From an uncultured Gemmatimonadota bacterium (GTDB lineage Bacteria; JAAXHH01), in contig OX638340.1 of the NCBI GenBank assembly GCA_951812955.1, positions 2,400,001-2,464,000 of the forward strand: a DNA stretch of 64,000 nt, given 5' to 3'. The position numbers were made by a program, and so were the translations under genes. This document shows, one piece after another, positions 26,908-51,110 of this stretch. How positions within the stretch are numbered: the stretch's first letter is position 1; each line of letters begins with the position of its first letter. The notes beneath the pieces were generated by a model. The model ran no database searches and was not told the origin of the DNA. It worked only from the letters and a program-made list of their open reading frames with translations.

Positions 26908-26945
26908 CTGATTGCAAGTTTTTAACCGTCCAAGTGCAAGTTTGA
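26908..26945. repeat. about 38-bp element GGCTGATTGCAAGTTTnnAAyCGTCCAAGTGCAAGTT, copy overlapping the 3' end of the ATPase gene
   Basis: direct repeat of the element found upstream of the same gene at 28351-28433. Confidence 0.8.
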
Positions 26946-28319
26946 GGCGGTTTCTACCGGATTCTCCCAAAGCAAACTGACCGGCGCAACCGTCAGTCCT
27001 TCTCCAAAACTCCAACACTTTTCTCCGTCATAAAGCACCACGCCGCCGGCGAACCGGTCACCAGCTGCATCCTTCAGCTTGCGCAATCCGTGGAAATCCG
27101 AAGCGCGTACAGTACTTGACGCTTTCACTTCCACACCCGCAACGGCCATTGTCCCCTTCTCGATCACCAGGTCTACCTCAACCTTGTCCTTGTCCCGATA
27201 GTGATAAAATGTCAGCGTATCATCAGACCAACTGGCCTGTCGTTTTAACTCTTGAAACACGAATGATTCCAGATACTGTCCGAATAGATCCCGATCTTTC
27301 TTCAGCGCCTCGCTGCTCGCACCGATCACGGCGCATCCGATTCCCGTGTCGCAGACATGCAGCTTCGGTGCCTTGACCATTCTCTTCAATCGATTGTTCT
27401 GCCATGCGGGTATCCGTTCCAGCAGGAAGATTCTTTCAAGGATCTCTACATACTTACCTATGGTCGGTCGGCTGAGGCTAAAGGTGGAGGACATGTCCTG
27501 AAGATTGTACAACCTTGCTGTTTGAGTCGCTGCAACAGAGAGGAGTCGAATCATGGCTCCATGATCACTTATCTTGGCTATGTCACGTACATCCCTTTGA
27601 AGTTGTGTTTCAACATAGTTCAGGTACCAATTGCGTCTTCTACCCTCGGTTGAGCGAGCCAACGCGGCCGGGAATCCTCCAGCTACGATTCTATCGGCCA
27701 GTCGGTCCGACGCTCCGGCCAACTCTGGCGCTTTAAGATCACCAGAAAACAATCGATCAAGAAAGGTGGGATGCTGACCCGACAGTTCACACTGGGCCAG
27801 TGGGTGGAGTCTGATGATCTCCAGCCGCCCCGCAAGAGAATCCGATACTCGTGGCACGAGCAGTACCTGCGATGATCCCGTTAGCAGAAACCGGCCGGGA
27901 ATCCGATCACGGTCGATCGCCATTTTCAAAGCGGTGAATATGGAAGGCGCCCGCTGAACCTCATCCAGAATTACTCTGCCAGGCAAATCGTTAACGAAGC
28001 CTATTGGATCTCTTTCCGCGGCTTCGCGTGCTGTTTCATCGTCAAAGGTAATGTAGTTGGCACCGCCCCATTCAATGACCGTTTCGCCGCCCCATACTAT
28101 GGTTTGCGACGGATTCATCATTCTCGCCAAGGTGGTCTTGCCACACTGTCTCGGACCGTGGATCAGGACGGCCGGCGAATCGGCAAGCGCCTCTTTCAGT
28201 GGGTGTTCCGCGTAACGCGGATAGAGTTTGGTCTCGGATGTCATTTTCGTAACGGGCTTTCGAGTAAGTTCCGTTCCTGATCGCATTGTACTGAGTGGTA
28301 CGTTCAATTCTTCTACCAT
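26922..28319 (-). CDS. AAA+ ATPase of the COG1373 / DUF4143 family
   Basis: 465 aa; Walker A AVLIHGPRQCGKTTLARM, Walker B VILDEVQ, C-terminal DUF4143-like region. Confidence 0.75.
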   Translation of the reverse strand: MVEELNVPLSTMRSGTELTRKPVTKMTSETKLYPRYAEHPLKEALADSPAVLIHGPRQCGKTTLARMMNPSQTIVWGGETVIEWGGANYITFDDETAREAAERDPIGFVNDLPGRVILDEVQRAPSIFTALKMAIDRDRIPGRFLLTGSSQVLLVPRVSDSLAGRLEIIRLHPLAQCELSGQHPTFLDRLFSGDLKAPELAGASDRLADRIVAGGFPAALARSTEGRRRNWYLNYVETQLQRDVRDIAKISDHGAMIRLLSVAATQTARLYNLQDMSSTFSLSRPTIGKYVEILERIFLLERIPAWQNNRLKRMVKAPKLHVCDTGIGCAVIGASSEALKKDRDLFGQYLESFVFQELKRQASWSDDTLTFYHYRDKDKVEVDLVIEKGTMAVAGVEVKASSTVRASDFHGLRKLKDAAGDRFAGGVVLYDGEKCWSFGEGLTVAPVSLLWENPVETASNLHLDG

Positions 28320-34775: not shown

Positions 34776-34896
34776 ATGTCAAGCGGTTTTTAGGAAAATT
34801 GGGGATTGGGAACGGGTGAGAACCATTTCACTAACCGCAAGTTCTTTTCAAAATTACAGCTTGCTTATTGATACAATTAACGTTAAATATATTAAT

Positions 34897-36057
34897 ATGA
34901 TGGCAGATTTTTACATTCCTCAAGCGCAACTCACCACACTCGCCCACCTGGTTACACCGGGCAAAGTCGTTGTGGTATACGGACCCAGAAGGGTGGGCAA
35001 GACCACGCTGATCAAGCGTTACATGCGAGAACACGACCCCGACGCCCTGCTCGTAACGGGGGAGGACATCGTGGTCAGGGAGTACCTCGAGAGTCAGTCC
35101 CTGGCCAAATTGACGTCCTTCGTCGGCCGTCGCCGTACACTGATCATCGACGAAGCTCAGCATATCCGGCAAATCGGGCTGAATCTCAAGCTGATCGCCG
35201 ACCACGTCGAAGGGCTTAAGATCATCACCACAGGCTCGTCCTCCTTCGACCTGGCCAATCAGACTGGCGAGCCCCTGACCGGCCGCAAGTATACCCTGCT
35301 GCTTCTGCCACTGGCCCAGTTGGAACTCCAGGAAACCGAATCCGCGCACCAGACACGAGCCCATCTCGAACTTCGGATGATTTACGGGTCGTATCCCGAA
35401 GTCGTCCTCATGGAGTCAAACGAAGACCGGCAACTCTATATCAAGGAACTGATCGCTTCCTATCTATTCAGGGACATACTCCAGCTGGAGGGCATACGCC
35501 ATGCGGACAAGCTGCTCAGGCTGCTGCAACTGGTCGCCTTCCAGATCGGACGCGAGGTATCGACTTCCGAACTGGGCACCCAGTTGGGCATGAAAGCGAA
35601 CACCGTGGATCGATATCTAGACTTACTTGAGAAATCCTATATCCTATACAGCCGCCGCGGGTTCAGCCGCAATCTGCGTAAGGAAATAACCAAGAGCCGA
35701 CGGTATTACTTCTACGACAACGGCATCAGGAACGGGTTGATCAACAACTTCAACCCACTTGCAATGCGGGATGACGCGGGGGAGTTGTGGGAAAGCTACA
35801 TCCTGGTGGAACGATTGAAGCACAACCTCTACAACGGACACCTGGCGGAAAGCTACTTCTGGCGTACATACGATCGCCAGGAAATCGACCTAGTTGAGGA
35901 GTGGGGAGGTCAACTACTTGCCACGGAAATGAAATGGACCGCCAGATCACACCGGGCGCCCGGCGCCTGGCGCAAGGCCTATCCCGAAAGTTCGTTCCAG
36001 GTTGTTCATCCTGAAAACTATCTCAGTTTTATTTCTGAATCACCGGCCGCACCCTAA
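34897..36057 (+). CDS. second AAA+ ATPase of the COG1373 / DUF4143 family
   Basis: start MMADFYIP; Walker A VVVYGPRRVGKTTLIKRYM, Walker B LIIDEAQ; paralog of 26922-28319. Confidence 0.75.
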   Translation: MMADFYIPQAQLTTLAHLVTPGKVVVVYGPRRVGKTTLIKRYMREHDPDALLVTGEDIVVREYLESQSLAKLTSFVGRRRTLIIDEAQHIRQIGLNLKLIADHVEGLKIITTGSSSFDLANQTGEPLTGRKYTLLLLPLAQLELQETESAHQTRAHLELRMIYGSYPEVVLMESNEDRQLYIKELIASYLFRDILQLEGIRHADKLLRLLQLVAFQIGREVSTSELGTQLGMKANTVDRYLDLLEKSYILYSRRGFSRNLRKEITKSRRYYFYDNGIRNGLINNFNPLAMRDDAGELWESYILVERLKHNLYNGHLAESYFWRTYDRQEIDLVEEWGGQLLATEMKWTARSHRAPGAWRKAYPESSFQVVHPENYLSFISESPAAP

Positions 36058-36796: not shown

Positions 36797-37429
36797 GTGT
36801 TTTCAATGAGCAGTATGGCCGCTAAAATCATGCGTCGGGTGTCCGCTCATCCCACCGGAAAGTGGGTTTGTACACCGAAGGATTTCCTGGACTTCGGGAG
36901 CAGGGAGGCCATTGACCAGGCTCTGTCGCGCCTGGCCAGATCCGATCGGCTGCGGCGCATAGGCCACGGCCTCTATGACAGGCCCAGGTTCAGCAACGTA
37001 CTGAGACGTCCTGCGCCGGTTGATCTGGATGCTGCAGTTAGCGCACTGGCAAGGAGGGACGGCGTTCAGATCCTGCCGGATGGCATGGCCTCTGCGAATC
37101 AGTTGGGACTCACGAACGCCGTACCGGCCAAAGTCAGCTTCGTAACAGATGGCTACTCCAGGACACTTAAAATTGAAGGAAGGACGGTCCGTTTTCGACA
37201 TGCGAGCCCGAGCGTTATGAAATGGGCCGGAAGACCGTCAGCTTCGGTGGTTCAGGCGTTGCGATGGCTTGGTCCCGCCGCGGCCGAGGACGCACGGGTC
37301 CTGTCGACCTTGAGCCGAACCCTCTCGGAAGAAGTGAAGGTCGATTTATTAAGAAACATACGCGATCTGCCGGGATGGGTATTGCCGCTGTTGCGAGAAA
37401 TAACCACTGAACATCACGACGCAATATGA
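36797..37429 (+). CDS. AbiEi-like / DUF6088 antitoxin (type IV TA system)
   Basis: 210 aa; wHTH-like N-terminus VCTPKDFLDFGSREAIDQALSRLARSDRLRRIGHGLY resembling AbiEi_4/DUF6088. Confidence 0.5.
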   Translation: MFSMSSMAAKIMRRVSAHPTGKWVCTPKDFLDFGSREAIDQALSRLARSDRLRRIGHGLYDRPRFSNVLRRPAPVDLDAAVSALARRDGVQILPDGMASANQLGLTNAVPAKVSFVTDGYSRTLKIEGRTVRFRHASPSVMKWAGRPSASVVQALRWLGPAAAEDARVLSTLSRTLSEEVKVDLLRNIRDLPGWVLPLLREITTEHHDAI

Positions 37430-37436
37430 AAATGGA

Positions 37437-38174
37437 TTGCGTATCTTTCCTCTCCCTTCCTGTCCAGGACAGACGGGACCTCTTCGAGTCAGCGGCAAAC
37501 TGAAAACCGCACTTTCGAGACGAATCGACGAGATCGTCGAAGGAGGTCTTGTCATTCCAGATGAAAGCGACGTCGACGGCCAGACGCTTCTCGTGGAGTA
37601 CCCTACACTTTACCCTGGAGACAGTGTCGCCTACGTGGCGCCACGGGTACGAATCGAGGCAGGGGCGAGATCGGCGCTGGATCCCAACCTGACCCGTACC
37701 ATCAAACCATTCATCGCGGATGAGGTGCGAGACTTGTCTTTGGCAGTGGAAAACATCCGCGTTATCGCACCAGATCGCACGCTCTGGGAGAAGCTGTTGA
37801 TCCTGCATGGGTTGTACTGCGGATATCGGGACGCACAGCGTCTACCGGCAGACAGAGATCGGATATCCCGCCACTACTACGATGTTGCCATGATAACGGA
37901 GACCGAGTCCGGCAGGGCCGCTCTATCCAACCTTGAATTGATGGATTCAGTTCGTAAACACAACCTTATTGCGTTTCGACAGGCCTGGAAGAAGTTCGAA
38001 GAGGCCGTACCTGGACGGGTGAAACTGGTTCCTCAGTTGGAACTGCACATGCTGATCGAGCGGGACTATGAAGCCATGCAGGACATGATCCTGGGTGACG
38101 TCCCGAATTTCAGATGGATCGTGGACCAATTGATGCATGCCGAAGCCATTGTCAATGGAACTACGAGAAGTTAA
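37437..38174 (+). CDS. AbiEii/DUF1814-like nucleotidyltransferase toxin, possibly N-terminally shortened
   Basis: 245 aa; C-terminal SRHYYDVAMI resembles the RhxYD motif of AbiEii; N-terminal GGTAL...RxSxDxD NTase motif only weakly present (EGGLVIPDESDVD). Confidence 0.4.
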   Translation: MRIFPLPSCPGQTGPLRVSGKLKTALSRRIDEIVEGGLVIPDESDVDGQTLLVEYPTLYPGDSVAYVAPRVRIEAGARSALDPNLTRTIKPFIADEVRDLSLAVENIRVIAPDRTLWEKLLILHGLYCGYRDAQRLPADRDRISRHYYDVAMITETESGRAALSNLELMDSVRKHNLIAFRQAWKKFEEAVPGRVKLVPQLELHMLIERDYEAMQDMILGDVPNFRWIVDQLMHAEAIVNGTTRS

Positions 38175-38298: not shown

Positions 38299-38916
38299 AT
38301 GGCAACCCGGCGAGAACTTGCCTTTCCCGTCGAATCTCAGGAAGCCGCTGAACTCGCAATCGAAGATGACCGCACCGGTATCATCCTCGATCCGCTTCGC
38401 TGGCGTCTCCTTGAGATCCTGGGAGCGGGAAAGTCGGTGACGGAGATTTCTGAAGCGCTTGATGTTACGGACGCCCGGGTGCTGTACCACGTGCAGAGAC
38501 TGGCACAGACGGGAGTCGTGCATCTGGAGGATGATGCGGCGGCAGATCCCCGGGAATGGCGGTGTCTGCCCGCGGCGGCAGTGATTAGCGTACAGGAGGA
38601 GCAGGAGGCGGGCAGGTCATCCGGGCAGGAGGACAGACAGGCACAAGTGGCCGTCCCGGAGGCAGTGGCCGGCCAGTTTAACCAGGCTTTTCGCGAAGCG
38701 GCGGAAGGGATGTACGGACCGTCCTTCCAGATGTCCGTCAACCACAACCGCGCGCGGCTGTCAGAAGCCCAGGCCGCCGAATTCAACCGTAGGCTGCTTG
38801 CGCTCATCGAAGAGTACTTCCCTCCCGGAAAAGGAGACCGGTCGGGCGTCAAGTACGGTTTCCACGGCGTGCTAACACCGATCGATCTTCATCCGCTTGG
38901 GGATGCCGAGGGATAG
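38299..38916 (+). CDS. ArsR-like wHTH transcriptional regulator (hypothetical)
   Basis: PLRWRLLEILGAGKSVTEISEALDVTDARVLYHVQRLAQTGVV resembles ArsR/HTH_20; C-terminal half unknown. Confidence 0.45.
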   Translation: MATRRELAFPVESQEAAELAIEDDRTGIILDPLRWRLLEILGAGKSVTEISEALDVTDARVLYHVQRLAQTGVVHLEDDAAADPREWRCLPAAAVISVQEEQEAGRSSGQEDRQAQVAVPEAVAGQFNQAFREAAEGMYGPSFQMSVNHNRARLSEAQAAEFNRRLLALIEEYFPPGKGDRSGVKYGFHGVLTPIDLHPLGDAEG

Positions 38917-38988: not shown

Positions 38989-39249
38989 TCACCGGGGTCC
39001 GCGACCATCACCGCGGCCTGAGACGACGGACCACAAGAAGACCGCCATACCTGCCAGCACAAGCACGGCCCCCAGGCAAAGGAACAAAGTCATCGAGACC
39101 GGATGGATCCAGAACAGGGTCGCCACTTCCACGACGAGGCCAACCGCAATCAACAAGCCCGCAATGTAAAGCCGGCCGGCGAATCCAGTTCGACCACCGG
39201 ACCGGAGGGATTCATGCATATCGCTCACTCTCCCGCCGCCGGTTCCCAT
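38989..39249 (-). CDS. small two-TM membrane protein (hypothetical)
   Basis: 86 aa; two hydrophobic helices; overlaps 3' end of the cytochrome gene by 25 bp. Confidence 0.3.
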   Translation of the reverse strand: MGTGGGRVSDMHESLRSGGRTGFAGRLYIAGLLIAVGLVVEVATLFWIHPVSMTLFLCLGAVLVLAGMAVFLWSVVSGRGDGRGPR

Positions 39250-39852
39250 TTGCCAAAACGATCCAGCTTGTCCACCTCATGCACCAGGTTGTGGCACATC
39301 ACGCATGATCTGGTACCGTTGAGCATTTCTCGCAGATAGGGCCGGTGGTCCGGATGCTCCTCGTACGAGCGCGCGCCTGCGTGACATTCGAGGCAGGCCG
39401 TGTTTTCGTAGGGCTCGTACAGCGCGACGGGTTCGGACCACGTCCCCCAGACGTTGTGCCATACGTGCCGCACGCCCCGGATCTTGTCGTCCACGTCCCC
39501 GAACATCGTGTAGTCCGAATGGCAGACGTAGCAGGCATAGTCCGCGGGGATCCGCTTATTCTGGAAATGGGCGGCCGGCAGAAACCGGCCGTCGTCGATA
39601 TACAGGCTTTCCAGGAAGGGTTGGTTGACGTGGCAGGAGACGCAGAACTCGGTCGACTTGGCTTGCTCGTAGTGCTGCACGGTTCCCACCGAGCAGCGCC
39701 ACGCCGGGCAGCAGTAGAAACGTGAAGAACGCGAAGATCATGCCGCCGGCCGAGGCGGTAAGATCGGGCCGCCGCAGGACTACCGCGATCATGGCCAGCG
39801 TAATGGCCGCCAGGACGATCAGGGTGATGGTAAATCCGGTCATTCCGGCCAC
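39225..39852 (-). CDS. NrfH/NapC-family membrane-anchored tetraheme cytochrome c, apparently split by a frameshift near 39690
   Basis: ORF 39225-39689 has four CxxCH (CVSCH, CYVCH, CLECH, CVMCH) but no membrane anchor; overlapping ORF 39556-39852 in another frame encodes only TM helices; joining at about 39690 gives TM helix, then about 15 aa, then TEFCVSCH as in NrfH. Confidence 0.6.
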
Positions 39853-40106
39853 TCAGTTCGACTCCTGTCCCCGGTCGCTATGGCTGCTTCGGTCGGCTCT
39901 ATTGTTCAGGCCGCCGACACTGCTCCGGCCACTTACTCCGCCGAACCGCGCCGGCCGGCTTCCTCACGAAGGTCCCGGGAGAGCGCCCTGATCTCGGCCA
40001 GGTCCTGCACCATCTCGCTCCAGCCGTACCACAGCGCATAGTCGGGATTGTTATGGAAGGTCCCCTGGAATGCCCGCATGCGATGTTCCAGGTGCATCCT
40101 GAAGAG

Positions 40107-41315
40107 TCACTGTTCGATCCTCGAAGGCGCGTCGTGAAACGCCAGCAGGTCGGGATAGTCGTATGCGTAATGTTCCGGCCGGACCAGTACCCCGTCCCGG
40201 TACAGCGCGGAGACGATGCGGATGGCCTCGGCCAGGAGGCGGTCGGTCTCGCGGATCATCTCATCGCCCTTTGCGAGTTCCGCCCGCACGAGGTTTTCCG
40301 AATGGCACTGCTCGCAGATGCCGGTCATGCGGTCGCGCTCCCGCTGCCAGTCCTCCTGGGTCAGCCGGGCCACGTCGGCCTGCCTGACCACATCCAGTCG
40401 CGGGGTGGGGTTGCCGTCCGGGTCCAGCACGCCAAGTGCCTGGAGGATCGTTGCCCGGTCCTCCGCCCACTGCGGGTCTTCCGGCATGGGAAGTCGGACG
40501 GCCAGGAAACCCCAGGCGGTCCGGACGCCGTGATCTCCCTCGGGCATGTGGCAGGTCTGGCACGTAGGCGCCTGGGCATGCTCGGGCAGCGTGCCGTTCT
40601 GCTTGAGCAGATGCCGCACGCCATGCTTGGAGGACGAGTACATTTCCCACTGGGGATGATCGAACCCCATGTGGCACGTCCTGCACGCCTGGGGCTCCCG
40701 GGCCTCCTTCACAGAAAAGAGATGGCGGGTATGACATACGTCGCAGGACGACAGGCCGAAAAGCCCGTCCTGCGCCTTGATCGTCTTAATCTCCTCTTCG
40801 CTCTTGAGGCCGATGCGGTGGCATCCGCCGCAGCCCTTCATACCCTCAGTCAGGGCCATGGGCAGGAAGTGGGTCGTCGGCATGGCGTTCATGCTGGTCC
40901 AGGCAAGGGCGTGCTTGCCCCCCGCGAACTGTTCCACCTGGATCGGATGGCACGTGGCGCACACGTCCGGGGTCGCGACGCCGGCCAGGGCCACGTCCTC
41001 CTCCGTGCGGTGATCGCCGCCGTGACACATGACGCAGTCCACGCCGTTCGTGCTGTGGGTGCTGAGTTCCCAGTCAATTACGATGCCGGGCGTGGCATCC
41101 TGGTGGCAGGCCACGCAGTCGGACGTGGCCCGCGGTGGATCGGCGGAGGGACCGCAGGCGGCAAGGGACAGCAGGAAGAATGATACGATGAAGAAGGATA
41201 CGATGTTGTTAACAAGGATGGCACGGCATACGCGGTACCTGGTTTTAGCAAGGAAGCGACTCCTGGAAAGCAGAGACGTCAGACTACCGGATTGCCGGGC
41301 CATCTTGTACCTCAT
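40107..41315 (-). CDS. octaheme c-type cytochrome, lipoprotein (HAO/ONR-family-like multiheme oxidoreductase)
   Basis: 402 aa; signal with lipobox LAACG; eight CxxCH motifs (CVACH, CVMCH, CATCH, CGGCH, CDVCH, CRTCH, CQTCH, CEQCH); followed on same strand by NrfH-like gene. Confidence 0.75.
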   Translation of the reverse strand: MRYKMARQSGSLTSLLSRSRFLAKTRYRVCRAILVNNIVSFFIVSFFLLSLAACGPSADPPRATSDCVACHQDATPGIVIDWELSTHSTNGVDCVMCHGGDHRTEEDVALAGVATPDVCATCHPIQVEQFAGGKHALAWTSMNAMPTTHFLPMALTEGMKGCGGCHRIGLKSEEEIKTIKAQDGLFGLSSCDVCHTRHLFSVKEAREPQACRTCHMGFDHPQWEMYSSSKHGVRHLLKQNGTLPEHAQAPTCQTCHMPEGDHGVRTAWGFLAVRLPMPEDPQWAEDRATILQALGVLDPDGNPTPRLDVVRQADVARLTQEDWQRERDRMTGICEQCHSENLVRAELAKGDEMIRETDRLLAEAIRIVSALYRDGVLVRPEHYAYDYPDLLAFHDAPSRIEQ

Positions 41316-41321
41316 GGAAGG

Positions 41322-41723
41322 TCACTGCCGGTTTTCAACGGCTTTCCGCCGCACCTCTTCACTCACCAGAACATCCGCGATGATTGCCACGATGTAGAAC
41401 TTGCCTTCCAACAGGTGCTCGTTGCTGAAAATGGGTTCCAGTTTTATCCATCTTCGAAGGTTCAGGTTCCCCCGGACCGTGTTGTATATAATGTCGTAAA
41501 ACTTCTGCGTGTCGTCAAACACCCAGGCTTCCGTGAAAATGATCCAGAACCCGATTTCTTCGGGAATGCCGTCCCAGTCGTTTGCCACCGCCCAGTTAAT
41601 CTCGATCGCCGGGTCGCTGTCGTACTTTATGGACTTCGATTCCGTGCCCATGACGATGCGGATTTGCAGATCCATATCGTTGATCTGGTTGAGCACGCCG
41701 TTCACGTCCTCGATAATTGCCAT
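41322..41723 (-). CDS. hypothetical protein, visibly lower GC than neighbours
   Basis: 133-aa ORF, acidic; no motif recognised. Confidence 0.4.
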   Translation of the reverse strand: MAIIEDVNGVLNQINDMDLQIRIVMGTESKSIKYDSDPAIEINWAVANDWDGIPEEIGFWIIFTEAWVFDDTQKFYDIIYNTVRGNLNLRRWIKLEPIFSNEHLLEGKFYIVAIIADVLVSEEVRRKAVENRQ

Positions 41724-42791: not shown

Positions 42792-43733
42792 ATGCATGGC
42801 GCCGAGAACGATATTCCATTTGAAGGCGAGGGGACTCATACAGGCGGGCCGGACCGGGCTGTTGACGATACGATCCGGCTGAACTGGCGCGAGAAGCTGG
42901 TTGAAGTCGGCCTGATGATGGTAATGTTCACGTGCGGTATGCTGATCGGAATGTTCGTCATCATAGCTTCTCTGCTTACCATGCGAAGTACATTCGAGCA
43001 GTTGGCCCCGGGATTCATGGAAGTAGGTTCGATTCCGCTCATCATTCTGGTCGTCGTGGCCGTGATCGTCGGGAATATCTGTTCGTTCAGCTGCGCTCCC
43101 TACCTCATACGTCTCTTCTTTCGGGGCTACGAGTTGAAGGACGAGCGGATCGACCGCGCTTTGGATCACCTGATTTCCGTGACCGGGATGGAAATCAGGG
43201 CCGAACGGATCTACGCCATAAAGGGCAGGACGGCCAACGCCGTCGTGGCCGGCCTCTTCCGGAAGGGTCAGTACATCTTCTTTACCAACAGGCTTCTGGA
43301 GAGAATGAGAGAAGGAGAGATCATGGCGATCCTGGCGCACGAACTGGCCCATGTGCGGCACCGGCACATGCCGAGGATGATGCTGGGCATCGTGCTATGG
43401 ACCCTCGGCATCCAGGTATTCTTCTGGCTGATTGGCTTCCAGGTTTACTTCGAATCGATCGAAGAATCCTGGAAAATGTGGGTGTATGGCGGAATAAATG
43501 CCTTGAACTTCTACCTGCTTGTTTTCCTCGTTCTGTTCCCGCAGTCGAGGCGTCACGAATACGAGGCGGATGAGGCCGCCGCCCGGTGGGTGGGCATAAG
43601 CCAGTACAAGCAGGCCCTTTACCGGTTGCATCAATTGAATGACCAACTGAAACCACCGAGGAAGATCCTGTCGAAGCTAAGTACCCATCCGACGCTTCAG
43701 CAGAGGCTGGAGCGGGTGGGGAATCTGGAATAA
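42792..43733 (+). CDS. M48-family (HtpX/Ste24-like) zinc metallopeptidase, membrane-embedded
   Basis: 313 aa; HELAHVRHRH (HExxH) and downstream EYEADEAA third ligand; 4 to 5 TM helices. Confidence 0.85.
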   Translation: MHGAENDIPFEGEGTHTGGPDRAVDDTIRLNWREKLVEVGLMMVMFTCGMLIGMFVIIASLLTMRSTFEQLAPGFMEVGSIPLIILVVVAVIVGNICSFSCAPYLIRLFFRGYELKDERIDRALDHLISVTGMEIRAERIYAIKGRTANAVVAGLFRKGQYIFFTNRLLERMREGEIMAILAHELAHVRHRHMPRMMLGIVLWTLGIQVFFWLIGFQVYFESIEESWKMWVYGGINALNFYLLVFLVLFPQSRRHEYEADEAAARWVGISQYKQALYRLHQLNDQLKPPRKILSKLSTHPTLQQRLERVGNLE

Positions 43734-43799
43734 CGTGTGACTGGTGTTTCAGCGTGCTATCCGCGTTTGTAAGGAAGGTTACAGGACGTGTATACGGAC

Positions 43800-45023
43800 T
43801 CACTCCATGTTCATCGCATCCACCGGGCTCAGCTGCGAAGCCTTCAAGGCGGGATATATTCCGGCACATAGACCTATTGCCAGTGAGATCGCCAGCGACA
43901 AGAGGATATTGGAAACCGACGTACCAGTCGTGAAAGTGAGATCCAACACCTGATTCAATACGAACGAGAAAACCGATCCAAGGCCCAGTCCCAGCAATAT
44001 CCCCAGTAACCCCCCTAAAGCACTGATACCTATGGCTTCCAGCGTGAATTGATTCACGATATCGACGTGTCTGGCTCCTACTGACTTCCTAATACCTATT
44101 TCCCGCCTTCGTTCCGTTACGGAGACCAGCATCATATTCATGATCCCGATTCCACCCACCATCAGTGAGATGCCCGCCACGGCGGCAATCGCCGACTTAA
44201 CGGCGTTAATCACACCTCCTATCTGGTCCATTGCGTTTTTTCCGCTGACTATGTCAAATCCGGGCGCATCACCATGGATTGTCTTCAAGGCTGCCTCAAT
44301 GTCATCCACCGCAATTTCCATGACACTCGAATCCACTACCTTGATGGTCAAAAGGTCGAAGCCTTCATGGCCAAGCATCCTTTTCTGGACCGTCGTTATC
44401 GGAACGAAGACCCGGTTGCCCCAACTTTCATTGAAAACAATCTTTGGCTTCATGACGCCGATCACGGCAAATCTCTGACCATTCAGTTTCACTTCCTTGC
44501 CGACCGGATTGGTATCGTCAAACAATCTAGCGGCCAGTTCATCGCCCAGTACACATACTTTTCGCCAGCGCTTGACGTCGCGGTCGGTAATGAATCGACC
44601 CGTGGAAACCGACCACTGGTACATCTCCGGAAATGAAGGCGTCGTGCCGTACAACATCCCTCCATGCGACGTTTTTGCGAATCTGAGATCTACATTCAAT
44701 GTCGCGGCGGGGACCAATTGGCGCACGGCGCTCGATCTTCTCCCGATTTCCAGCATATCCTGCCAGACAAGATGCTCGTAATCGGATACAGGCATCCAAC
44801 TTCCTTCCCTATTTTCGTATCTCGATGGACTCACCCACACCATGGAGCCGCCACGTACGGATTCGAATTCATCCATCACCATGTCGTGAAGCCCCTCTCC
44901 AATCACGATGATGCCTGTTACAGCGCCAATGCCGACCGCAATCCCCAGCAGCGTCAGGACCGAACGCAGCCTGTAGTGAACGAGATTGGTAAACACCGTG
45001 TGGACATGGTGCGCTAAAGACAT
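43800..45023 (-). CDS. MacB/FtsX-type ABC permease with periplasmic domain (no NBD)
   Basis: 407 aa; N-terminal TM, large periplasmic domain, three C-terminal TM helices (FtsX fold); no adjacent ATPase gene. Confidence 0.8.
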
Positions 45024-45045
45024 AGACGACAGGGTCCGTAGAGGA

Positions 45046-46260
45046 CTATTGGTGTTTCGATTTCAGCGCGATATGAACCGCTCTTGCATCCGCTGCGATG
45101 TGTGCTCCAGGTTCGATACCGGACAGAATCTCCACATATTCAGTCGATTCAATTCCGATCTCGACCATGGTGGATTCCAGGTATTCTTCCGGACATTTCG
45201 ACATACCAGGGTCCATCGAAGTACAACGATAAACCACGTACGGCTTGCCGGGCACCGACCCAGTAGATGCTGTTTCCTTCTGTTCAGTGGCTATACCTAC
45301 GTAATCACCCATTTCCATGACCGAAGATGCAGGCGCAAGCAGCGAGCCTTCATTCTTCTCCAACACGATGTCGATATCGCAGGACATTCCCTGCTGCAAA
45401 TCCAGCGATGGATTCGATATCACGATTTCGGCATCGAACGTTACAAGCGCACTCCCGGGTTTCCGCACACCGATAGGCGCCAACCGCTCAACATGCCCGC
45501 TGTACAATGTGTCCGGGTAGGCATCGACACGAATCCGTACTTCCTGTCCAGGCCTGACCCTGCCTGCGTCAATTTCCCCAATGGCCGATTTGACGATCAT
45601 TCTGTCCGGATCGCCAATATGAAACATCTCCGTACCGCCGGTATACGAGGAGGTGCCCGATGCTACGACCTCGCCCGTTTCCACCATGCGGGCAACGACG
45701 ATGCCGTTCAAGGGAGACAGGATCCTCACGGCATCATGCGTTCTGTTGGAATCCACCTCAACATTAACCTTCAGTTCAAGTATTTTGAGTTCGAGTTCCG
45801 CCATGTTGAGATTATGATTGGCCTTGGTTTTTTCAATCCTTGCCTTGTCGAATTCCGCAGACGATATCAGGGATCTCTCATGTAATTCACGCTTTCTTTT
45901 AAAGGAGATCTCTTGTTCTGACAGATCTATTCGAGCGCCTTCAACTCTGGCGCGCTGCCGGGACAACTGAAGGGACTGAGACGGATCCGGCTCTATCACG
46001 GCAAGGACATCCCCCTTTGATACCGTATCCCCTACATCGGCGTGAATATGCCTGATTTCCCCGGATATGGTGGGTTTGACCATGACGGTCCTGACAAACT
46101 GGATCGTACCTGTCTCCACCAGGATATCGGAGATCGTTCCATGTTGAACCTGGAGTATTGGGAACGAGGCAACCCGGACCGTGGAACTGTAAACAAAGTA
46201 CAGTAGAACGGCTACGAGAATGCATGCCGATACGCAGACAATGACTATGCGTTTTTTCAT
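45046..46260 (-). CDS. HlyD-family membrane-fusion (periplasmic adaptor) protein
   Basis: 404 aa; single N-terminal TM, coiled-coil region ([20 protein letters not shown]...), beta-barrel/lipoyl-like segments. Confidence 0.75.
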
Positions 46261-46281
46261 GTCAGCGGTGATTTCCAGGAA

Positions 46282-47013
46282 TTACACGTAAACGGTACCA
46301 AGGTTCTCCATGGTCCTGCGAATGACAATCCACATGCACCACACTAGTCCCAACGCGAACCATGTGAGTATAACCGATCCCTGGAAAGTCCGTGCAAGAC
46401 CCAACCCCAGCAGGTAAAGAAACCAAATACCGAAAAAGTCGACACCTGTAAGGAACAGGCCCGGGAGGGTTTCGAGGTCTGCATCGTCGAGCAACACACC
46501 AGGATGGATAGCCGGATCTAGCGACCCCCAAAGCAGAACCAGCGTGGTTTTGACGACTGTTTCGGGTACGAGGACAAGCAAGGCGTAGCCGGTAATCGGC
46601 AGAACCTTGTTGTACGGCAGGAGCTTACCGAAGATCAATTCTCCGCTGTGTTTCCCTACAACCGACCACGCGACAAGCATAAGGCAGACGCTGGCCGGCA
46701 TGATTAAAAGACCGGCGAGTTGCCTATGGTCGAATTTCGAAGCCTCGCGCAGGATAATAGATTGCTGAAACATACTGAGATTCGAATAGGACTGGAGTTC
46801 CATTTCGATCAACGCCCGTTCCGTATCCAGCGCAACCGGCAAAGTTACTATCCCGGCGATCAGTACGACCGACACGATAACGATCAGAATCAGGATCGAC
46901 TCAGAGGCGGACTGTTCAGTTTCAAGATCCGCAAATGCCCTCCCGGGACTGTAATAGACTCGTAGCCATCGCCTGGCATATCTTCCCATATCTATTGACG
47001 CGCTCAAGGACAT
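46282..47013 (-). CDS. multi-pass membrane protein, possibly Yip1/DUF1282-like
   Basis: 243 aa; 5 predicted TM helices; N-terminal YYSPGRAFADLE...ILILIVIVSVVLIAG resembles Yip1-domain start; 10-bp overlap with upstream gene. Confidence 0.4.
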   Translation of the reverse strand: MSLSASIDMGRYARRWLRVYYSPGRAFADLETEQSASESILILIVIVSVVLIAGIVTLPVALDTERALIEMELQSYSNLSMFQQSIILREASKFDHRQLAGLLIMPASVCLMLVAWSVVGKHSGELIFGKLLPYNKVLPITGYALLVLVPETVVKTTLVLLWGSLDPAIHPGVLLDDADLETLPGLFLTGVDFFGIWFLYLLGLGLARTFQGSVILTWFALGLVWCMWIVIRRTMENLGTVYV

Positions 47014-48224
47014 AGATCTCCCATGATGACCAGATGGTAGTAGCTGTGTCCGCCACCGGACCAGAATGGACTATTCCAGGGCCAGAACCTCCACCAGATT
47101 GGTTTGGAACGGGTATATGCACCTTGGCGAAAACTCTCCAGGAAGGTACTGATGTGATGTACCGTGCTCGTGGAAAGATGCCTGCCGACTCTCTTGGGAT
47201 GGGATTCCACGCCGAGGTAAGAACGAATCATAAGGCTGTGTTCATCGATTGGAAGCGCATCGACATTCTCGACGTACCAATTGAACACGTAGTAGAAGTG
47301 GTTTATGAGGAAGTACTCAACGTTAGAAACATAGAAAACGGAAATGCTCGAGTCGTGGGCTTCAGCGTAAGAACCGATGGCCCTCAACGTCTTCTCGCCC
47401 GCGAAGTTTCCCACGACGGGAATGATCAGGTTCCTGTGATGCAGGCGCTTCACGAACCTGAATGTATCTTCGGTAAACAAGAAACTGGCGAATTCTCCCT
47501 CCACAGTCGTACCTGTCATCAGGTCTTTGAACGAAGGATAGGATAACCCGTTGCCCAGTCGTGTTTCAGCGTATGTAATCGAAAGCTGTTTTTCGTAAAA
47601 CGATCGGTATATGTAGCGCATCCTGTCGAGATCGTACCGATCTTTGATCCCATACATGCCTACTTCCCGACTGAGCCGCCTCCAATTCTGTTTAAAAAAC
47701 AGTGAGTCGGCCGTGGTCGACGATTCGATGTATTCCAGGACTTCCGTAACGGAAGCGGTTTTATCCGGTAATCCGTTCAAAGCCAATCCGACTTCCCGGT
47801 TATGTCTACTGAACAGCAGCATCAGGAAGGATGTCCGGTCCCGGGCCAGGGTAAAAAGGGCTTTGTAGAGGAGATGCTGAAGCAGGTTTTCACGTCGGAT
47901 GTCGACGACAAATGCGATTTCCGGTCTCGTAGCAGCGATGTAGGAGAAGTTCTGTTCCGTACCGACGCCGATATAGACGCCGCCGCGTTTTCCCAGTTCG
48001 ATTACGGTCGGGACAACGTGCAGGTAGGACGATTCATTGGAAACGAAGTTGTCGCCGGGAAAGTGACCGGGATCTTCGGAGAACGCAGTCATGATCCTGG
48101 CGAATTCGGACAGCGCAAGGGAGTCCGGCAACGCCCCGTAAGATGGGAAGCGCAGGTCAGTCAGCGCGCCGATGGTCAGTAGCAGTATGACAACTCGAAT
48201 CAACTTCATCGGTTTTACATCCAT
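47004..48224 (-). CDS. secreted hypothetical protein (406 aa) with Rossmann-like GxGxxxN motif
   Basis: signal peptide MKLIRVVILLLTIGALTDL; GGVYIGVGTEQNF...VVDIRREN looks like a nucleotide-binding beta-alpha-beta start; no family confidently recognised. Confidence 0.5.
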   Translation of the reverse strand: MDVKPMKLIRVVILLLTIGALTDLRFPSYGALPDSLALSEFARIMTAFSEDPGHFPGDNFVSNESSYLHVVPTVIELGKRGGVYIGVGTEQNFSYIAATRPEIAFVVDIRRENLLQHLLYKALFTLARDRTSFLMLLFSRHNREVGLALNGLPDKTASVTEVLEYIESSTTADSLFFKQNWRRLSREVGMYGIKDRYDLDRMRYIYRSFYEKQLSITYAETRLGNGLSYPSFKDLMTGTTVEGEFASFLFTEDTFRFVKRLHHRNLIIPVVGNFAGEKTLRAIGSYAEAHDSSISVFYVSNVEYFLINHFYYVFNWYVENVDALPIDEHSLMIRSYLGVESHPKRVGRHLSTSTVHHISTFLESFRQGAYTRSKPIWWRFWPWNSPFWSGGGHSYYHLVIMGDLCP

Positions 48225-48244
48225 TCCATCTGCATTTGGTTCGT

Positions 48245-49192
48245 CTATTGCGCGTCCAACCTTGACACGCGGTCGAGACGGTTCTGCATCGTGGGGTGGG
48301 TCAGAAGTACTCTAACAAATCTCGGTGGTGGCTTTAAATTGTCATTGACTTGATGAAGACGGTAGAGCGCCCGTTTGTATTGCTCCGTGCCCACCCATTT
48401 TGCCGCCGTAGCATCTGCTTCGTATTCGTTACGCCTCGATAGCGGGTAAATGACCAGAAACATGAGAAGCCACACGTTCACGGCATTTAAAAGCCCGTAC
48501 GTCCACATTTTAAAAGACTCATCCATTGCATCGACATATGCACTGAAATCTAGCAGATACAGGAAAGCCTGCATCCCGCAGACCCACATAAATGTAGCCA
48601 ACTGCATCTTGGGAAGATGCCTGTGACGAACATGGGCCAATTCGTGGGCGAATATTGCCAAAATCTCCTCTTCGTTCGCTTTCGCCAGAAGTTTGTCCGT
48701 AAAGAAGATGTACCTGTTTTTGCGGAAAAGCCCAGTTACCATCGCGTTGGCAGTCCTGCTCTTGATGGTGTACAGGGTTTCTGCCGCAATGTTCATATCG
48801 ACGGACGATATCAGCTTCCCGACTGACCGATCCAGGCGATCGTCCCGTAACTCGTATCCACGGAAGATGAGACGTATCAGATATGGAGAACACAACCATG
48901 CACAGGCGTTCCCTACGGTTGCCGACAGGATGACCAGCAACACAATCGTTAAGGAACCTTGGTCCAATAGACCCGGAACTCCCTGAACAATCATGTCATC
49001 CGCGGTTAACAGAATGCTTAAGAACACGAATACCGCGATCAATATGCCCACCAGGGTCACACTCATGTTCAACCCGATTTCGACCAGTCTGTCGCGCCAG
49101 GTCAACCGGATTGGTTCATCTTTAATCGATGAAGCGCCGCCGGCTACTTCATTTATACGGTGTGTAGGTTCGACCATTATTTCCTTCTTCAA
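48245..49192 (-). CDS. M48-family zinc metallopeptidase, paralog of 42792-43733
   Basis: 315 aa; HELAHVRHRH and EYEADATAA; collinear similarity to the other copy over the whole length (IRLTWRDRLVEIGL / IRLNWREKLVEVGL, ... LTHPTMQNRLDRV / STHPTLQQRLERV). Confidence 0.85.
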   Translation of the reverse strand: MKKEIMVEPTHRINEVAGGASSIKDEPIRLTWRDRLVEIGLNMSVTLVGILIAVFVFLSILLTADDMIVQGVPGLLDQGSLTIVLLVILSATVGNACAWLCSPYLIRLIFRGYELRDDRLDRSVGKLISSVDMNIAAETLYTIKSRTANAMVTGLFRKNRYIFFTDKLLAKANEEEILAIFAHELAHVRHRHLPKMQLATFMWVCGMQAFLYLLDFSAYVDAMDESFKMWTYGLLNAVNVWLLMFLVIYPLSRRNEYEADATAAKWVGTEQYKRALYRLHQVNDNLKPPPRFVRVLLTHPTMQNRLDRVSRLDAQ

Positions 49193-49199
49193 ATCAGCG

Positions 49200-49850
49200 T
49201 TATGACATAACGGCTTGTACCAGGCCGTTTAGCGCGACGTATGCCAGGATCACGCCGACTGCTTTGAACCTGGGCATCAAGCAGACCCTGTGCACCGCTT
49301 CGATGGCAAAAGCGACCACCAGGGTCAAAGCAATATACCGACCGTATCGAATCCACTTAAGCAACCCGATATCCTGCATCTTCGTGATCTCGCCGGGCAA
49401 TTGATCGATCGTGGCCAGGTTCGACAGTCCGACATAGACCATCTGGTCTGAAAACGCAAGCATGAGAACGACCGCCATGATCGAATACACTGTAACCGGG
49501 GTGTATGCGACACCCAGCCATCCAAACAGCGCGCGATGACGACGTCTACTGTTCAATAGCGCAACAACGATCATTACAAACAGCCAACCGAACACGAAAA
49601 TCACGATTTCGCCCAATGTGACGCCCAATATCATGGTTATGAACATAACTGAGAATAACTGTGCATATGTTTCGGTAAGATGATCCGGTATTTGTCCTGC
49701 AACTGACCTGAAAGTCAGAAAAAGTACGATCCCGTTCATAAGCAAGTATATGACAAACATGCCGATGCCCGTCGAGAGCGGTTCGGTTACACTGATTGAT
49801 ACCAGCCTGTCGGATGCCCTGCGTGGAATTTCCATTTTCTGTCCGTTCAA
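49200..49850 (-). CDS. multi-pass membrane protein, possibly Yip1-like
   Basis: 216 aa; 5 hydrophobic helices; 4-bp overlap with upstream gene. Confidence 0.4.
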   Translation of the reverse strand: MNGQKMEIPRRASDRLVSISVTEPLSTGIGMFVIYLLMNGIVLFLTFRSVAGQIPDHLTETYAQLFSVMFITMILGVTLGEIVIFVFGWLFVMIVVALLNSRRRHRALFGWLGVAYTPVTVYSIMAVVLMLAFSDQMVYVGLSNLATIDQLPGEITKMQDIGLLKWIRYGRYIALTLVVAFAIEAVHRVCLMPRFKAVGVILAYVALNGLVQAVMS

Positions 49851-50518
49851 TTGATTTTGTTCGCTATTTGTCCAGTGACAAAGGTTTCTATAATCGAAGC
49901 CACCGTGATCAGAAGGAATCCGGTGACGAGTCTGCGTACGTTCAAGGCCAACCTATCCGAATCTATGAGCCATGTATCGAACTTGAGTTTTTGGCAAAAG
50001 AGGACCAGACCTTCGCATCCCACAGCGCCGAAAAACACAAACCCCGCCAACTCAATCACGCCATGGGGTAGAATCAAAGCGGCTATGTGGTATATCGAAG
50101 CACCGGAATCAACCGCAGAAAGCGTAGACCATGCCACGATAGTTCCTGTCCAGCCCAATATCACAACACTGACCAATCCAAAGGACAGAAGGCCCAATAG
50201 TATTTTCATGGAAACGAGGAAATTGTTGCCAATAATGAAACGCCATTCATCCCCACCGTCCAAAAAGGGACGTGAATCCAGCATGAGGGTGGAGCTACCC
50301 GGATCTGTTGGTTTATTCTCAATCATATCCAGGGGCATTGCCGCTCCAACACCCAAGCCGACGATGACAGAAGCAAAGGAAATTAAAATGGGTAGTTTGC
50401 TTGGTTTGCGCGTTGACATAGATCCCACACTAGGTATCATCCATAAATTCCGAGGAAAGGATGGAGGCCATTTTCGGCCTCCATCCATCGTACTTACCAG
50501 CTTGTTAAATTCCAGCAC
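49847..50518 (-). CDS. SpoIIM / DUF95-family membrane protein
   Basis: 223 aa; LPHGVIELAGFVFFGAVG matches the conserved HGxxE(L/I)xA motif of DUF95/SpoIIM. Confidence 0.55.
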   Translation of the reverse strand: MLEFNKLVSTMDGGRKWPPSFPRNLWMIPSVGSMSTRKPSKLPILISFASVIVGLGVGAAMPLDMIENKPTDPGSSTLMLDSRPFLDGGDEWRFIIGNNFLVSMKILLGLLSFGLVSVVILGWTGTIVAWSTLSAVDSGASIYHIAALILPHGVIELAGFVFFGAVGCEGLVLFCQKLKFDTWLIDSDRLALNVRRLVTGFLLITVASIIETFVTGQIANKIN

Positions 50519-50789
50519 CTATAAACACGGCGCCAACACCGGTTCCAATGCCAACGCTGGCCACGAGACCATAGCCGGCTGCTGTCAGCCAACCAATTGT
50601 TCCACCACCAGCCAATCCACCCAGTGCAACACCGCCAACCAGGGACGCATTGGAACCCCACAAGCAGTAAGCGAGGTTCGGCGACGCTGCGATGCCCGGT
50701 GTTTCAGCCAGCGGCGAACTGGCCGTTGAGTTGACGCTCGCGCCTGCGATCAGGGCGAACATGAACACTGAGAGAATGAGTTTTTTCAT
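50505..50789 (-). CDS. small secreted Gly/Ala-rich hydrophobic peptide, first gene of the island operon
   Basis: start MKKLILSVFMFALIAGASVNS (signal peptide); C-terminal GGVALGGLAGGGTIGWLTAAGYGLVASVGIGTGVGAVFIGAGI with serial GxxxG motifs. Confidence 0.45.
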   Translation of the reverse strand: MKKLILSVFMFALIAGASVNSTASSPLAETPGIAASPNLAYCLWGSNASLVGGVALGGLAGGGTIGWLTAAGYGLVASVGIGTGVGAVFIGAGI

Positions 50790-51110
50790 AATGATTTGTT
50801 CCCCTCGATTTTGGTATATATCGAACCAATGTGGTTTATCCTTCGAAAGACTCTGTAATGCCGTTAACCTCCTTTCCTCTCTCAAATTAGATTCCATCCG
50901 CCGTTCTCATTCGATGCGACGTCATTCTCTGCCCAGGTACCAGGAAACTCGGTTGCAGGTCTCGGAATGCGCAGTTCCGAGAGAAAGCGTCGATCTCTTA
51001 ACGGGGACTCGACCTAATGTTAAAACTGAATCCAGTAACTGTGACCGCAGCGATCTATCACAATTAGTCTCCGTGAATCCCCGGTTCTCGTAGACAATCT
51101 CTATTTCCTG

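Follow-up and report, generated by a model that had tools for sequence, protein, structure and literature searches.

A probably reductive HAO-like cytochrome module, interrupted by a stop codon and a frameshift, in an uncultured Gemmatimonadota bacterium

What is encoded by an octaheme cytochrome c gene of about 400 codons that is separated from a tetraheme partner gene by an apparent gap of 250 bp, and in which direction would its product work? This question is raised by a locus in a 64,000-nucleotide stretch of DNA, referred to here as the window, from an uncultured Gemmatimonadota bacterium (GenBank assembly GCA_951812955.1, contig OX638340.1, positions 2,400,001 to 2,464,000). A first-pass annotation, made from the letters alone, had described an octaheme lipoprotein with an NrfH-like partner and had titled the pair a respiratory module of the hydroxylamine oxidoreductase/octaheme nitrite reductase (HAO/ONR) type. 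In this study, the locus was found to be a three-gene, minus-strand respiratory module comprising an HAO-family lipoprotein, a tetraheme protein of the NapC/NirT/NrfH family, and a membrane protein of about 75 aa. We consider it probable that this module is reductive, its HAO-like enzyme lacking the tyrosine that cross-links the heme in oxidative HAOs, and that it has been inactivated in this genome by a premature stop and a frameshift. The family and the type of partner were thus recognized at first pass; the interruption of both genes and the third conserved gene were overlooked.

The octaheme gene and its premature stop

The HAO-like octaheme gene occupies 39933..41315 on the minus strand and has 460 codons, one of which is an in-frame TGA; its translation matches PF13447 at 82.8 bits (cut-off 21.9) and is 95% identical to its closest relative, P0001. 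An alternative ATG at 41303 is the start used by public gene calls. As an open frame, the gene runs from 41315 to 40107 and encodes 402 aa with exactly eight CxxCH motifs (at C67, C94, C119, C162, C191, C211, C252 and C334) and no CxxCK, as had been counted before. These motifs span 40302..41117: motifs 1 to 3 lie at 41103-41117, 41022-41036 and 40947-40961, motif 4, which is catalytic by homology, at 40818-40832, and motifs 5 to 8 at 40731-40745, 40671-40685, 40548-40562 and 40302-40316. All 24 motif Cys and His residues are invariant in an alignment of 18 relatives, and 23 of the 24 in a second alignment, of 90 relatives. The lipoprotein signal noticed earlier was also borne out: a lipobox read from the sequence, L51-A52-A53-C54 (LAAC), ends the predicted signal peptide at 41154..41165. 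In the alignment of 18 relatives, its Cys54 is kept in close relatives and is missing from distant ones, whose signal peptides are plain.

The length of about 400 aa, by contrast with these features, is the result of a truncation. The TGA is codon 403 of 460 (40107..40109), and past it the same frame stays open for 57 further codons to a TAA at 39933, reading APSRIEQ, the stop, and then LFRMHLEHRMRAFQGTFHNNPDYALWYGWSEMVQDL. This orphaned 3' end (39933..40106) is continuous in frame with the upstream open reading frame (ORF), and 27 of its 57 residues are invariant among the 18 relatives. In the TGA column, close relatives have Arg and others Lys (17/17 aligned homologues), and Cys never occurs. 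More than 7000 proteins were retrieved in a homologue search; the best 120 have lengths of 402-461 aa and identities of 65-95% to the query, and intact relatives have 410-460 aa. P0001 (456 aa) is the product of an intact octaheme gene present on two contigs, L001 and L002, and a codon-by-codon comparison places the TGA of the window opposite a CGA (Arg) in L001. The same comparison gave 39 synonymous and 21 non-synonymous differences, 14 of the latter falling within the first 62 codons, which comprise the signal peptide and linker; this pattern bears the mark of past purifying selection. Since the differences to this 95%-identical intact relative are almost only synonymous outside the signal peptide, the inactivation is likely to be recent.

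The truncated product is also present in public collections, as a 398-aa protein whose 90%-identity cluster has 90 members; all nine of the other cluster members that were fetched are complete at the C-terminus. Among 83 loci, the window alone carries a stop inside the conserved protein body. The 57 residues lost, which form the C-terminal helices, are the best conserved stretch of the protein. The truncation takes off the last two long helices, the 'NPDYALWYGW' loop with the cross-link position, and His421, which is kept in all solved HAOs aligned. In the HAO superfamily the subunit interface is built of three long helices (PMC9250108), and we infer that the two helices lost here are among these three. 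A functional product from the truncated gene is unlikely.

Could the stop be read through? An alternative genetic code was rejected, since TGA is an ordinary stop in this DNA and terminates 7 of 15 neighbouring genes. Recoding of this single TGA, by selenocysteine insertion or programmed readthrough, would allow the full-length protein still to be made. The stop is followed by C, and UGA-C is a leaky stop context; moreover, a 7-bp inverted repeat (CCTGGAA...TTCCAGG) starts 18 nt downstream of the stop codon. However, every homologue has Arg or Lys at this position and none has Cys or Sec, the predicted fold of the downstream RNA is not better than that of shuffled sequence (z = -0.49), and the window contains neither an Rfam match nor a tRNA-Sec. 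The selenocysteine reading was rejected on these grounds. Recoding of the TGA would, in addition, leave the frameshift of the partner gene, described below, unrescued, and we regard it as extremely improbable in either form.

The tetraheme partner, the small membrane protein and the intergenic gap

The gene that follows, of the NapC/NirT/NrfH type, encodes a tetraheme protein resembling quinol dehydrogenases and lies at 39225..39852 on the minus strand, with a likely ATG at 39843. Its family had been assigned correctly at first pass, on the basis of what was taken to be a single gene. The ORF at 39225-39689 (minus strand; 154 aa) has four CxxCH motifs (39630-39644, 39519-39533, 39381-39395 and 39291-39305) and matches PF03264 (NapC/NirT) at 34.8 bits, and itself encodes neither signal nor anchor. 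The start of this tetraheme ORF is overlapped by a 98-aa ORF (39556-39852) in a different frame, which encodes two hydrophobic helices. The two-helix N-terminal anchor (39690-39852) is out of frame with the heme domain through one extra G, in a GGG run at 39685..39687 that lies between the two parts; DNA alignment gives GGTGGGAAC in the window and GGTGGAAC in L001. Deletion of one base restores a 208-aa product that shows 10 residue differences to the L001 protein and matches PF03264 at 44.1 bits over profile positions 8-171 of 174, with a cut-off of 24.1 for both matches. An intact 205-aa NapC/NirT-type gene lies downstream of the octaheme gene in L001, and intact orthologues of 205-208 aa are found in the 37 closest genome loci (L003-L038 and L053). 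In one locus, L032 (5225-5829), from a Terriglobia metagenome-assembled genome (MAG), the NrfH-like gene was found by tblastn in two pieces in different frames, and a frameshifted partner may recur there.

The partner falls far below the NrfH equivalog model TIGR03153 (29.5 bits; cut-off 134.2), its first heme motif is CVSCHVN, without the CxxCHxM form, and a phmmer search against solved structures returned no match to a solved NrfH and no informative match. Judged by its sequence, the partner belongs to the NapC/NirT/NrfH superfamily as a divergent member, and two membrane helices are predicted for it.

These lesions also account for the gap that had been called unusually long for a coupled operon. 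The apparent gap runs from 40106 down to 39853 (about 254 nt), of which 174 nt belong to the severed 3' end of the octaheme gene. The true intergenic spacer has 80-89 nt in the window, compared with 12-75 nt in most relatives measured. Thus, the 400-aa length and the long gap are due to the stop and the frameshift, and are not features of the system. The spacer itself (39853-39932) is about 49 nt shorter than its counterpart in L001 (2633-2761), as a result of two deletions (18 and 31 nt), and diverges from L001 much more than the flanking coding DNA does.

The third gene of the module, identified by tblastn, encodes a small two-helix membrane protein of 76 aa (38989..39219, minus strand; ATG 39219) and begins 5 nt past the stop of the partner. 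Pfam holds no family for this protein. In the 37 closest loci, the order HAO-like, NrfH-like and small membrane protein was found by tblastn with the three genes present in 37, 37 and 35 loci, respectively, each directly after the one before. The scan behind this comparison used one genome per species and found 548 loci encoding a relative. The best 80 of the 548 were kept. They derive from Latescibacterota, at 86-87% identity, from a 3.9-Mb unclassified MAG, at 91%, and from Gemmatimonadota, many Acidobacteriota and further phyla; judged by their names, many of the nearest bins are apparently sponge-associated. The parent family exceeds 7000 sequences from many phyla, and the identity of about 65-95% applies to the 120 best that were measured.

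It may be asked whether the module is in fact intact in the organism, both lesions being errors of sequencing or assembly. The frameshift consists of a G run altered in length by a single base (GG to GGG), which is the commonest type of long-read error; the contig is chromosome-sized (3.81 Mb), and the genes, the two lesions aside, show no decay. However, a stop created by C-to-T substitution is atypical of consensus errors, and every other long gene that was checked in the window is intact. These genes amount to more than 20 kb, most of them matching their main Pfam domains end to end, and include uninterrupted genes for an Lhr helicase (1517 aa), an aconitase (967 aa), an ABC exporter (754 aa), a hybrid kinase (794 aa), GH32, MacB and HlyD proteins, and a leucine-rich repeat protein of 1557 aa. 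The longest-ORF map also holds several shadow ORFs in high-G+C DNA, none with a Pfam family; these were not used as evidence for broken genes. Two independent lesions in adjacent genes of one operon are what relaxed selection after a first lesion would give, unlike random error. With two lesions in adjacent genes against a clean background, real and recent pseudogenization fits better than random error, and we consider it unlikely, though far from negligible, that both lesions are artefacts.

HAO family membership and the direction of the reaction

If pseudogenization is accepted, what was the enzyme? Besides the PF13447 match, searches of the Protein Data Bank (PDB) by single sequence and by a profile of the clade returned only HAO, HDH, HAOr and IhOCC chains. 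The profile matched 6h5l (Kustc0458) at 3e-37, 4fas (Nitrosomonas europaea HAO) at 3e-33 and 4qo5 (IhOCC) at 2e-25, with 4n4j, 6t5e and 6hif at intermediate E-values. Because of the E-value of 3e-37 to a solved HAO-family chain and the more than 7000 homologues, the homology is far beyond chance. Generic heme-motif models gave sub-threshold matches only. Heme motifs 3-8 align to those of N. europaea HAO and motif 1 to those of Kuenenia HAOr and HOX, while motif 2 lies in weakly aligned loops; alignment to an unrelated multiheme family, the outcome that would have spoken against the initial assignment, was not observed. Directly after heme motif 6, Asp219-His220 (40656..40661) aligns with D267-H268 of N. 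europaea HAO, in 'CHSGVDHNNWEAY'. In 90 relatives Asp219 is invariant and His220 at least 90% conserved. We take this Asp-His pair to be catalytic, as in HAO structures.

An AlphaFold2 model was made for the intact relative P0001 from the alignment of 90 relatives. The mean predicted local distance difference test score (pLDDT) is 70.6; the model is poor around hemes 4-6 and reaches 89-98 for the C-terminal helices. Foldseek against the PDB gave 11 significant matches, all to HAO, HDH, HAOr or IhOCC structures, at template modelling (TM) scores of 0.52-0.56. The structure prediction that had been proposed as a check thus pointed to the same family as the sequence searches.

Other multiheme families were considered and rejected. 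For NrfA and ONR, the protein has no CxxCK; NrfA, TvNiR and TaNiR appear at Foldseek E-values of 0.57 or higher, and none is among the PDB sequence matches. The 'ONR' of the first-pass title should therefore be dropped. Otr, MccA and MtrC/OmcA are absent from the PDB sequence matches (E up to 0.01) and from the 48 fold matches (E up to 10). Taken together, sequence and model assign the octaheme protein to the HAO family (PF13447) and not to NrfA/ONR, with a putative NapC/NrfH-type partner, in an arrangement like that of epsilon-Hao with its CycB-type partner, as had been suggested.

The absence of Otr, MccA and MtrC/OmcA similarity at these thresholds also bears on whether the module might reduce a substrate other than a nitrogen compound, for instance sulfite, tetrathionate or metals. 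In vitro, multiheme cytochromes from this superfamily behave promiscuously (PMC9250108), and no nitrogen-cycle genes were found elsewhere in the 64-kb window. Against this stand the missing similarity and the conserved Asp-His pair of HAO, and a non-nitrogen substrate seems to us improbable. The earlier caution that the substrate cannot be read from sequence was nevertheless a fair one.

The direction of the reaction was approached through the tyrosine that cross-links to the heme in oxidative HAOs. In a HMMER profile alignment, Tyr467 of N. europaea HAO (4fas) lies opposite the invariant Leu428 (40032..40034) of the 'NPDYALWYGW' segment. In a MAFFT alignment of C-terminal segments, Y467 and a Tyr of Kuenenia HOX share one column, in which this clade has Leu and Kustc0458 the first Trp of WWW. 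From its spacing to a conserved His and Gly, the HOX Tyr in that column was taken as the cross-link Tyr of that enzyme. The placement of Y467 is supported, since MAFFT puts it in one column with the HOX Tyr. The C-terminal Tyr of HAO, which had been singled out for inspection at first pass, is thus Leu at the cross-link position, and this fits a reductase. The Tyr-less HAOs tested so far are reductases that do not oxidize hydroxylamine (PMC8042395), and the physiology of Nautilia points to its Tyr-less HaoA as a reductase, conceived to work with a CycB/NapC partner (PMC3701875). The protein studied here fits with the Tyr-less HAOs, which are of the reductive type, like epsilon-Hao, Kustc0458 and IhOCC.

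The opposite reading, in which intact versions would be oxidative HAOs that convert hydroxylamine to NO or nitrite, follows the KEGG-style 'hao' annotation of sponge Latescibacterota. Some sources do annotate the family as hydroxylamine dehydrogenase, the interpretation adopted in PMC12993501, and two invariant tyrosines, Tyr426 and Tyr430, lie close to the cross-link loop. However, both alignments have Leu in the cross-link column, the nearest relative with a solved structure, Kustc0458, is reductive, and Tyr-less HAOs do not oxidize hydroxylamine (PMC8042395). Furthermore, the partner is of the NrfH type, and neither amo genes nor c554 lie nearby. An oxidative role is, in our judgment, very improbable.

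The known systems were compared with this module. Kustc0458 (HAOr) of Kuenenia stuttgartiensis (6H5L) is the best match in sequence and fold; it likewise has an octaheme HAO fold without a Tyr cross-link, shares with this protein a cross-link loop that is one residue shorter, and is a reductase in vitro (PMC8042395). It differs in its identity of only about 24%, in having Trp where this protein has Leu, in not being a lipoprotein, in its location in the anammoxosome, and in its partner, which is the soluble diheme Kustc0457 instead of a membrane tetraheme protein. In the epsilon-Hao system, or hydroxylamine:ubiquinone reductase module run in reverse (reverse-HURM; HaoA with CycB/NapC in Nautilia and Campylobacter), a Tyr-less HAO is thought to be fed from quinol by a NapC/NrfH-family tetraheme protein and to reduce nitrite or hydroxylamine (PMC3701875). 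The Nautilia genes (NAMH_1280 and NAMH_0559) are unlinked, whereas here the genes are adjacent and accompanied by a third gene for a small membrane protein. The description of epsilon-Hao given in PMC8940962 (citing Haase et al.) places a Trp at the Tyr position and a Met eight residues before it. By that description, through which alone epsilon-Hao was compared, the protein of the window differs in having Leu428, with Trp429 adjacent, and Phe420.

The oxidative HAO, HOX and HDH enzymes (N. europaea 4FAS/1FGJ; Kuenenia 4N4J and 6HIF) share the arrangement of eight hemes and the Asp-His pair, at TM scores of about 0.53-0.55. In contrast to these enzymes, the present protein has Leu428 in place of the cross-link Tyr, about 400 mature residues instead of about 500-550, and an NrfH-like partner instead of c554/cM552. 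NrfHA shares the logic of the module, in that a gene for a NapC/NrfH-type quinol dehydrogenase adjoins that of a periplasmic multiheme N-oxide reductase. Unlike in NrfHA, the catalytic subunit has no CxxCK and its fold comparison gives E > 0.5; the partner has two predicted membrane helices and scores below the NrfH equivalog. IhOCC of Ignicoccus hospitalis (4QO5) is also a Tyr-less, HAO-like octaheme reductase (2e-25 by profile, TM 0.52), but is archaeal and the weakest of the HAO-family matches. We know of no NrfH-like neighbour for IhOCC.

Proposed function, genomic surroundings and significance

By analogy with NrfHA and with reverse-HURM (PMC3701875), intact copies of the module may work as follows. 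The tetraheme protein would draw electrons from the quinol pool on the membrane's outer face and pass them through its four hemes to the heme chain of a lipid-anchored, probably trimeric HAO-like enzyme. There, a five-coordinate heme 4 with the Asp-His pair would reduce a nitrogen oxide, probably nitrite, NO or hydroxylamine, and the product would probably be ammonium (NH4+) or NO. In the genome studied here, a C-to-T change has turned Arg403 (CGA) into TGA, and an inserted G has split the anchor of the partner from its heme domain.

Several points weigh against this reading. The substrate and direction proposed for the clade rest on analogy, and the P0001 model is of moderate quality and poor around the catalytic heme. 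The invariant Tyr426 and Tyr430 flank the cross-link position by two residues on each side, and might form an unusual cross-link. The 3.81-Mb source contig probably comes from long reads, for which a surplus base in a short run of G is a typical artefact; the frameshift, at least, might have arisen in this way. Finally, the more distant family members (L039-L082) have no gene for an NrfH-like or other heme protein within 2.5 kb. Because these loci lack an adjacent NrfH-like gene, the quinol link would be specific to the clade and not a property of the whole family.

Reductive HAO-like enzymes with NapC/NrfH-type partners are already known. The literature found on them is general and includes no study of this clade, which appears to be biochemically unstudied. 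A bolder proposal is that the intact module is a distinct quinol-linked N-oxide reductase of this kind, strongly conserved among Latescibacterota, Acidobacteriota and Gemmatimonadota, in which Tyr426 and Tyr430 might have an unconventional role in the active site. We put this forward tentatively, as a possibility that is somewhat doubtful at present.

The surroundings of the module were also inspected. An acidic ORF of 133 aa (41322..41723, minus strand; G+C 0.52) precedes the HAO-like gene by 6 nt, outside the conserved module. It encodes no signal peptide, matches nothing in Pfam or NCBIfam, belongs to a 17-member cluster, and is confined to the window and L001-L004; it resembles a recent insertion in the leader of the operon. 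A convergent ArsR-type regulator gene (38299-38916) is common only to the nearest few loci and was not counted in the module. A toxin-antitoxin pair of an AbiEi-like protein (DUF6088) and AbiEii (36797-38174, plus strand) adjoins the module; the AbiEii ORF has a TTG start and a Pfam match that begins at profile position 51 of 238, and may be shortened at its N-terminus.

Farther away, the uninterrupted 1557-aa ORF at 1541-6214 (plus strand) encodes many leucine-rich repeats and two Big_2 domains, and is a eukaryote-like repeat protein. Proteins of this type are found in sponge symbionts. ARAGORN reported a 94-nt 'tRNA-Glu (CTC)' at 17625-17718 (plus strand), inside the opposite-strand ORF of the Lhr helicase; it has no Rfam tRNA match and is almost certainly a false positive. 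A block of very high G+C content (28.4-34.3 kb, up to 0.70) is flanked by paralogous genes for AAA_14/DUF4143 ATPases at 26922-28319 (minus strand) and 34816-36057 (plus strand). Within this block, long ORFs overlap on both strands, and those on the plus strand have no Pfam match. A second block (42792-51093) has a lower G+C content (about 0.50-0.55, compared with 0.60-0.67 around it) and may have been acquired horizontally. Genes for paralogous M48 peptidases lie toward its ends (42792-43733, plus strand, and 48245-49192, minus strand), with genes for a MacB-type permease, HlyD, a Yip1-domain protein and DUF7790 between them.

In sum, the locus is an ordinary gene family in the course of loss; what it offers are corrected gene models, a pseudogene call, and a case against reading such loci as nitrification. 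With both core genes broken, for which the gene caller gives a 398-aa cytochrome and fragments, the organism should not be given credit for the pathway. Genes of this type are routinely labelled 'hao' and booked as hydroxylamine oxidation or nitrification, as in sponge Latescibacterota (PMC12993501); reduction is indicated instead by the NrfH-type partner and the absence of the cross-link Tyr. If the intact module is indeed a distinct quinol-linked N-oxide reductase, it could explain part of the metagenomic 'hao' signal that has been credited to nitrification. The conserved three-gene arrangement provides a defined target for the first biochemistry of a very widespread clade.

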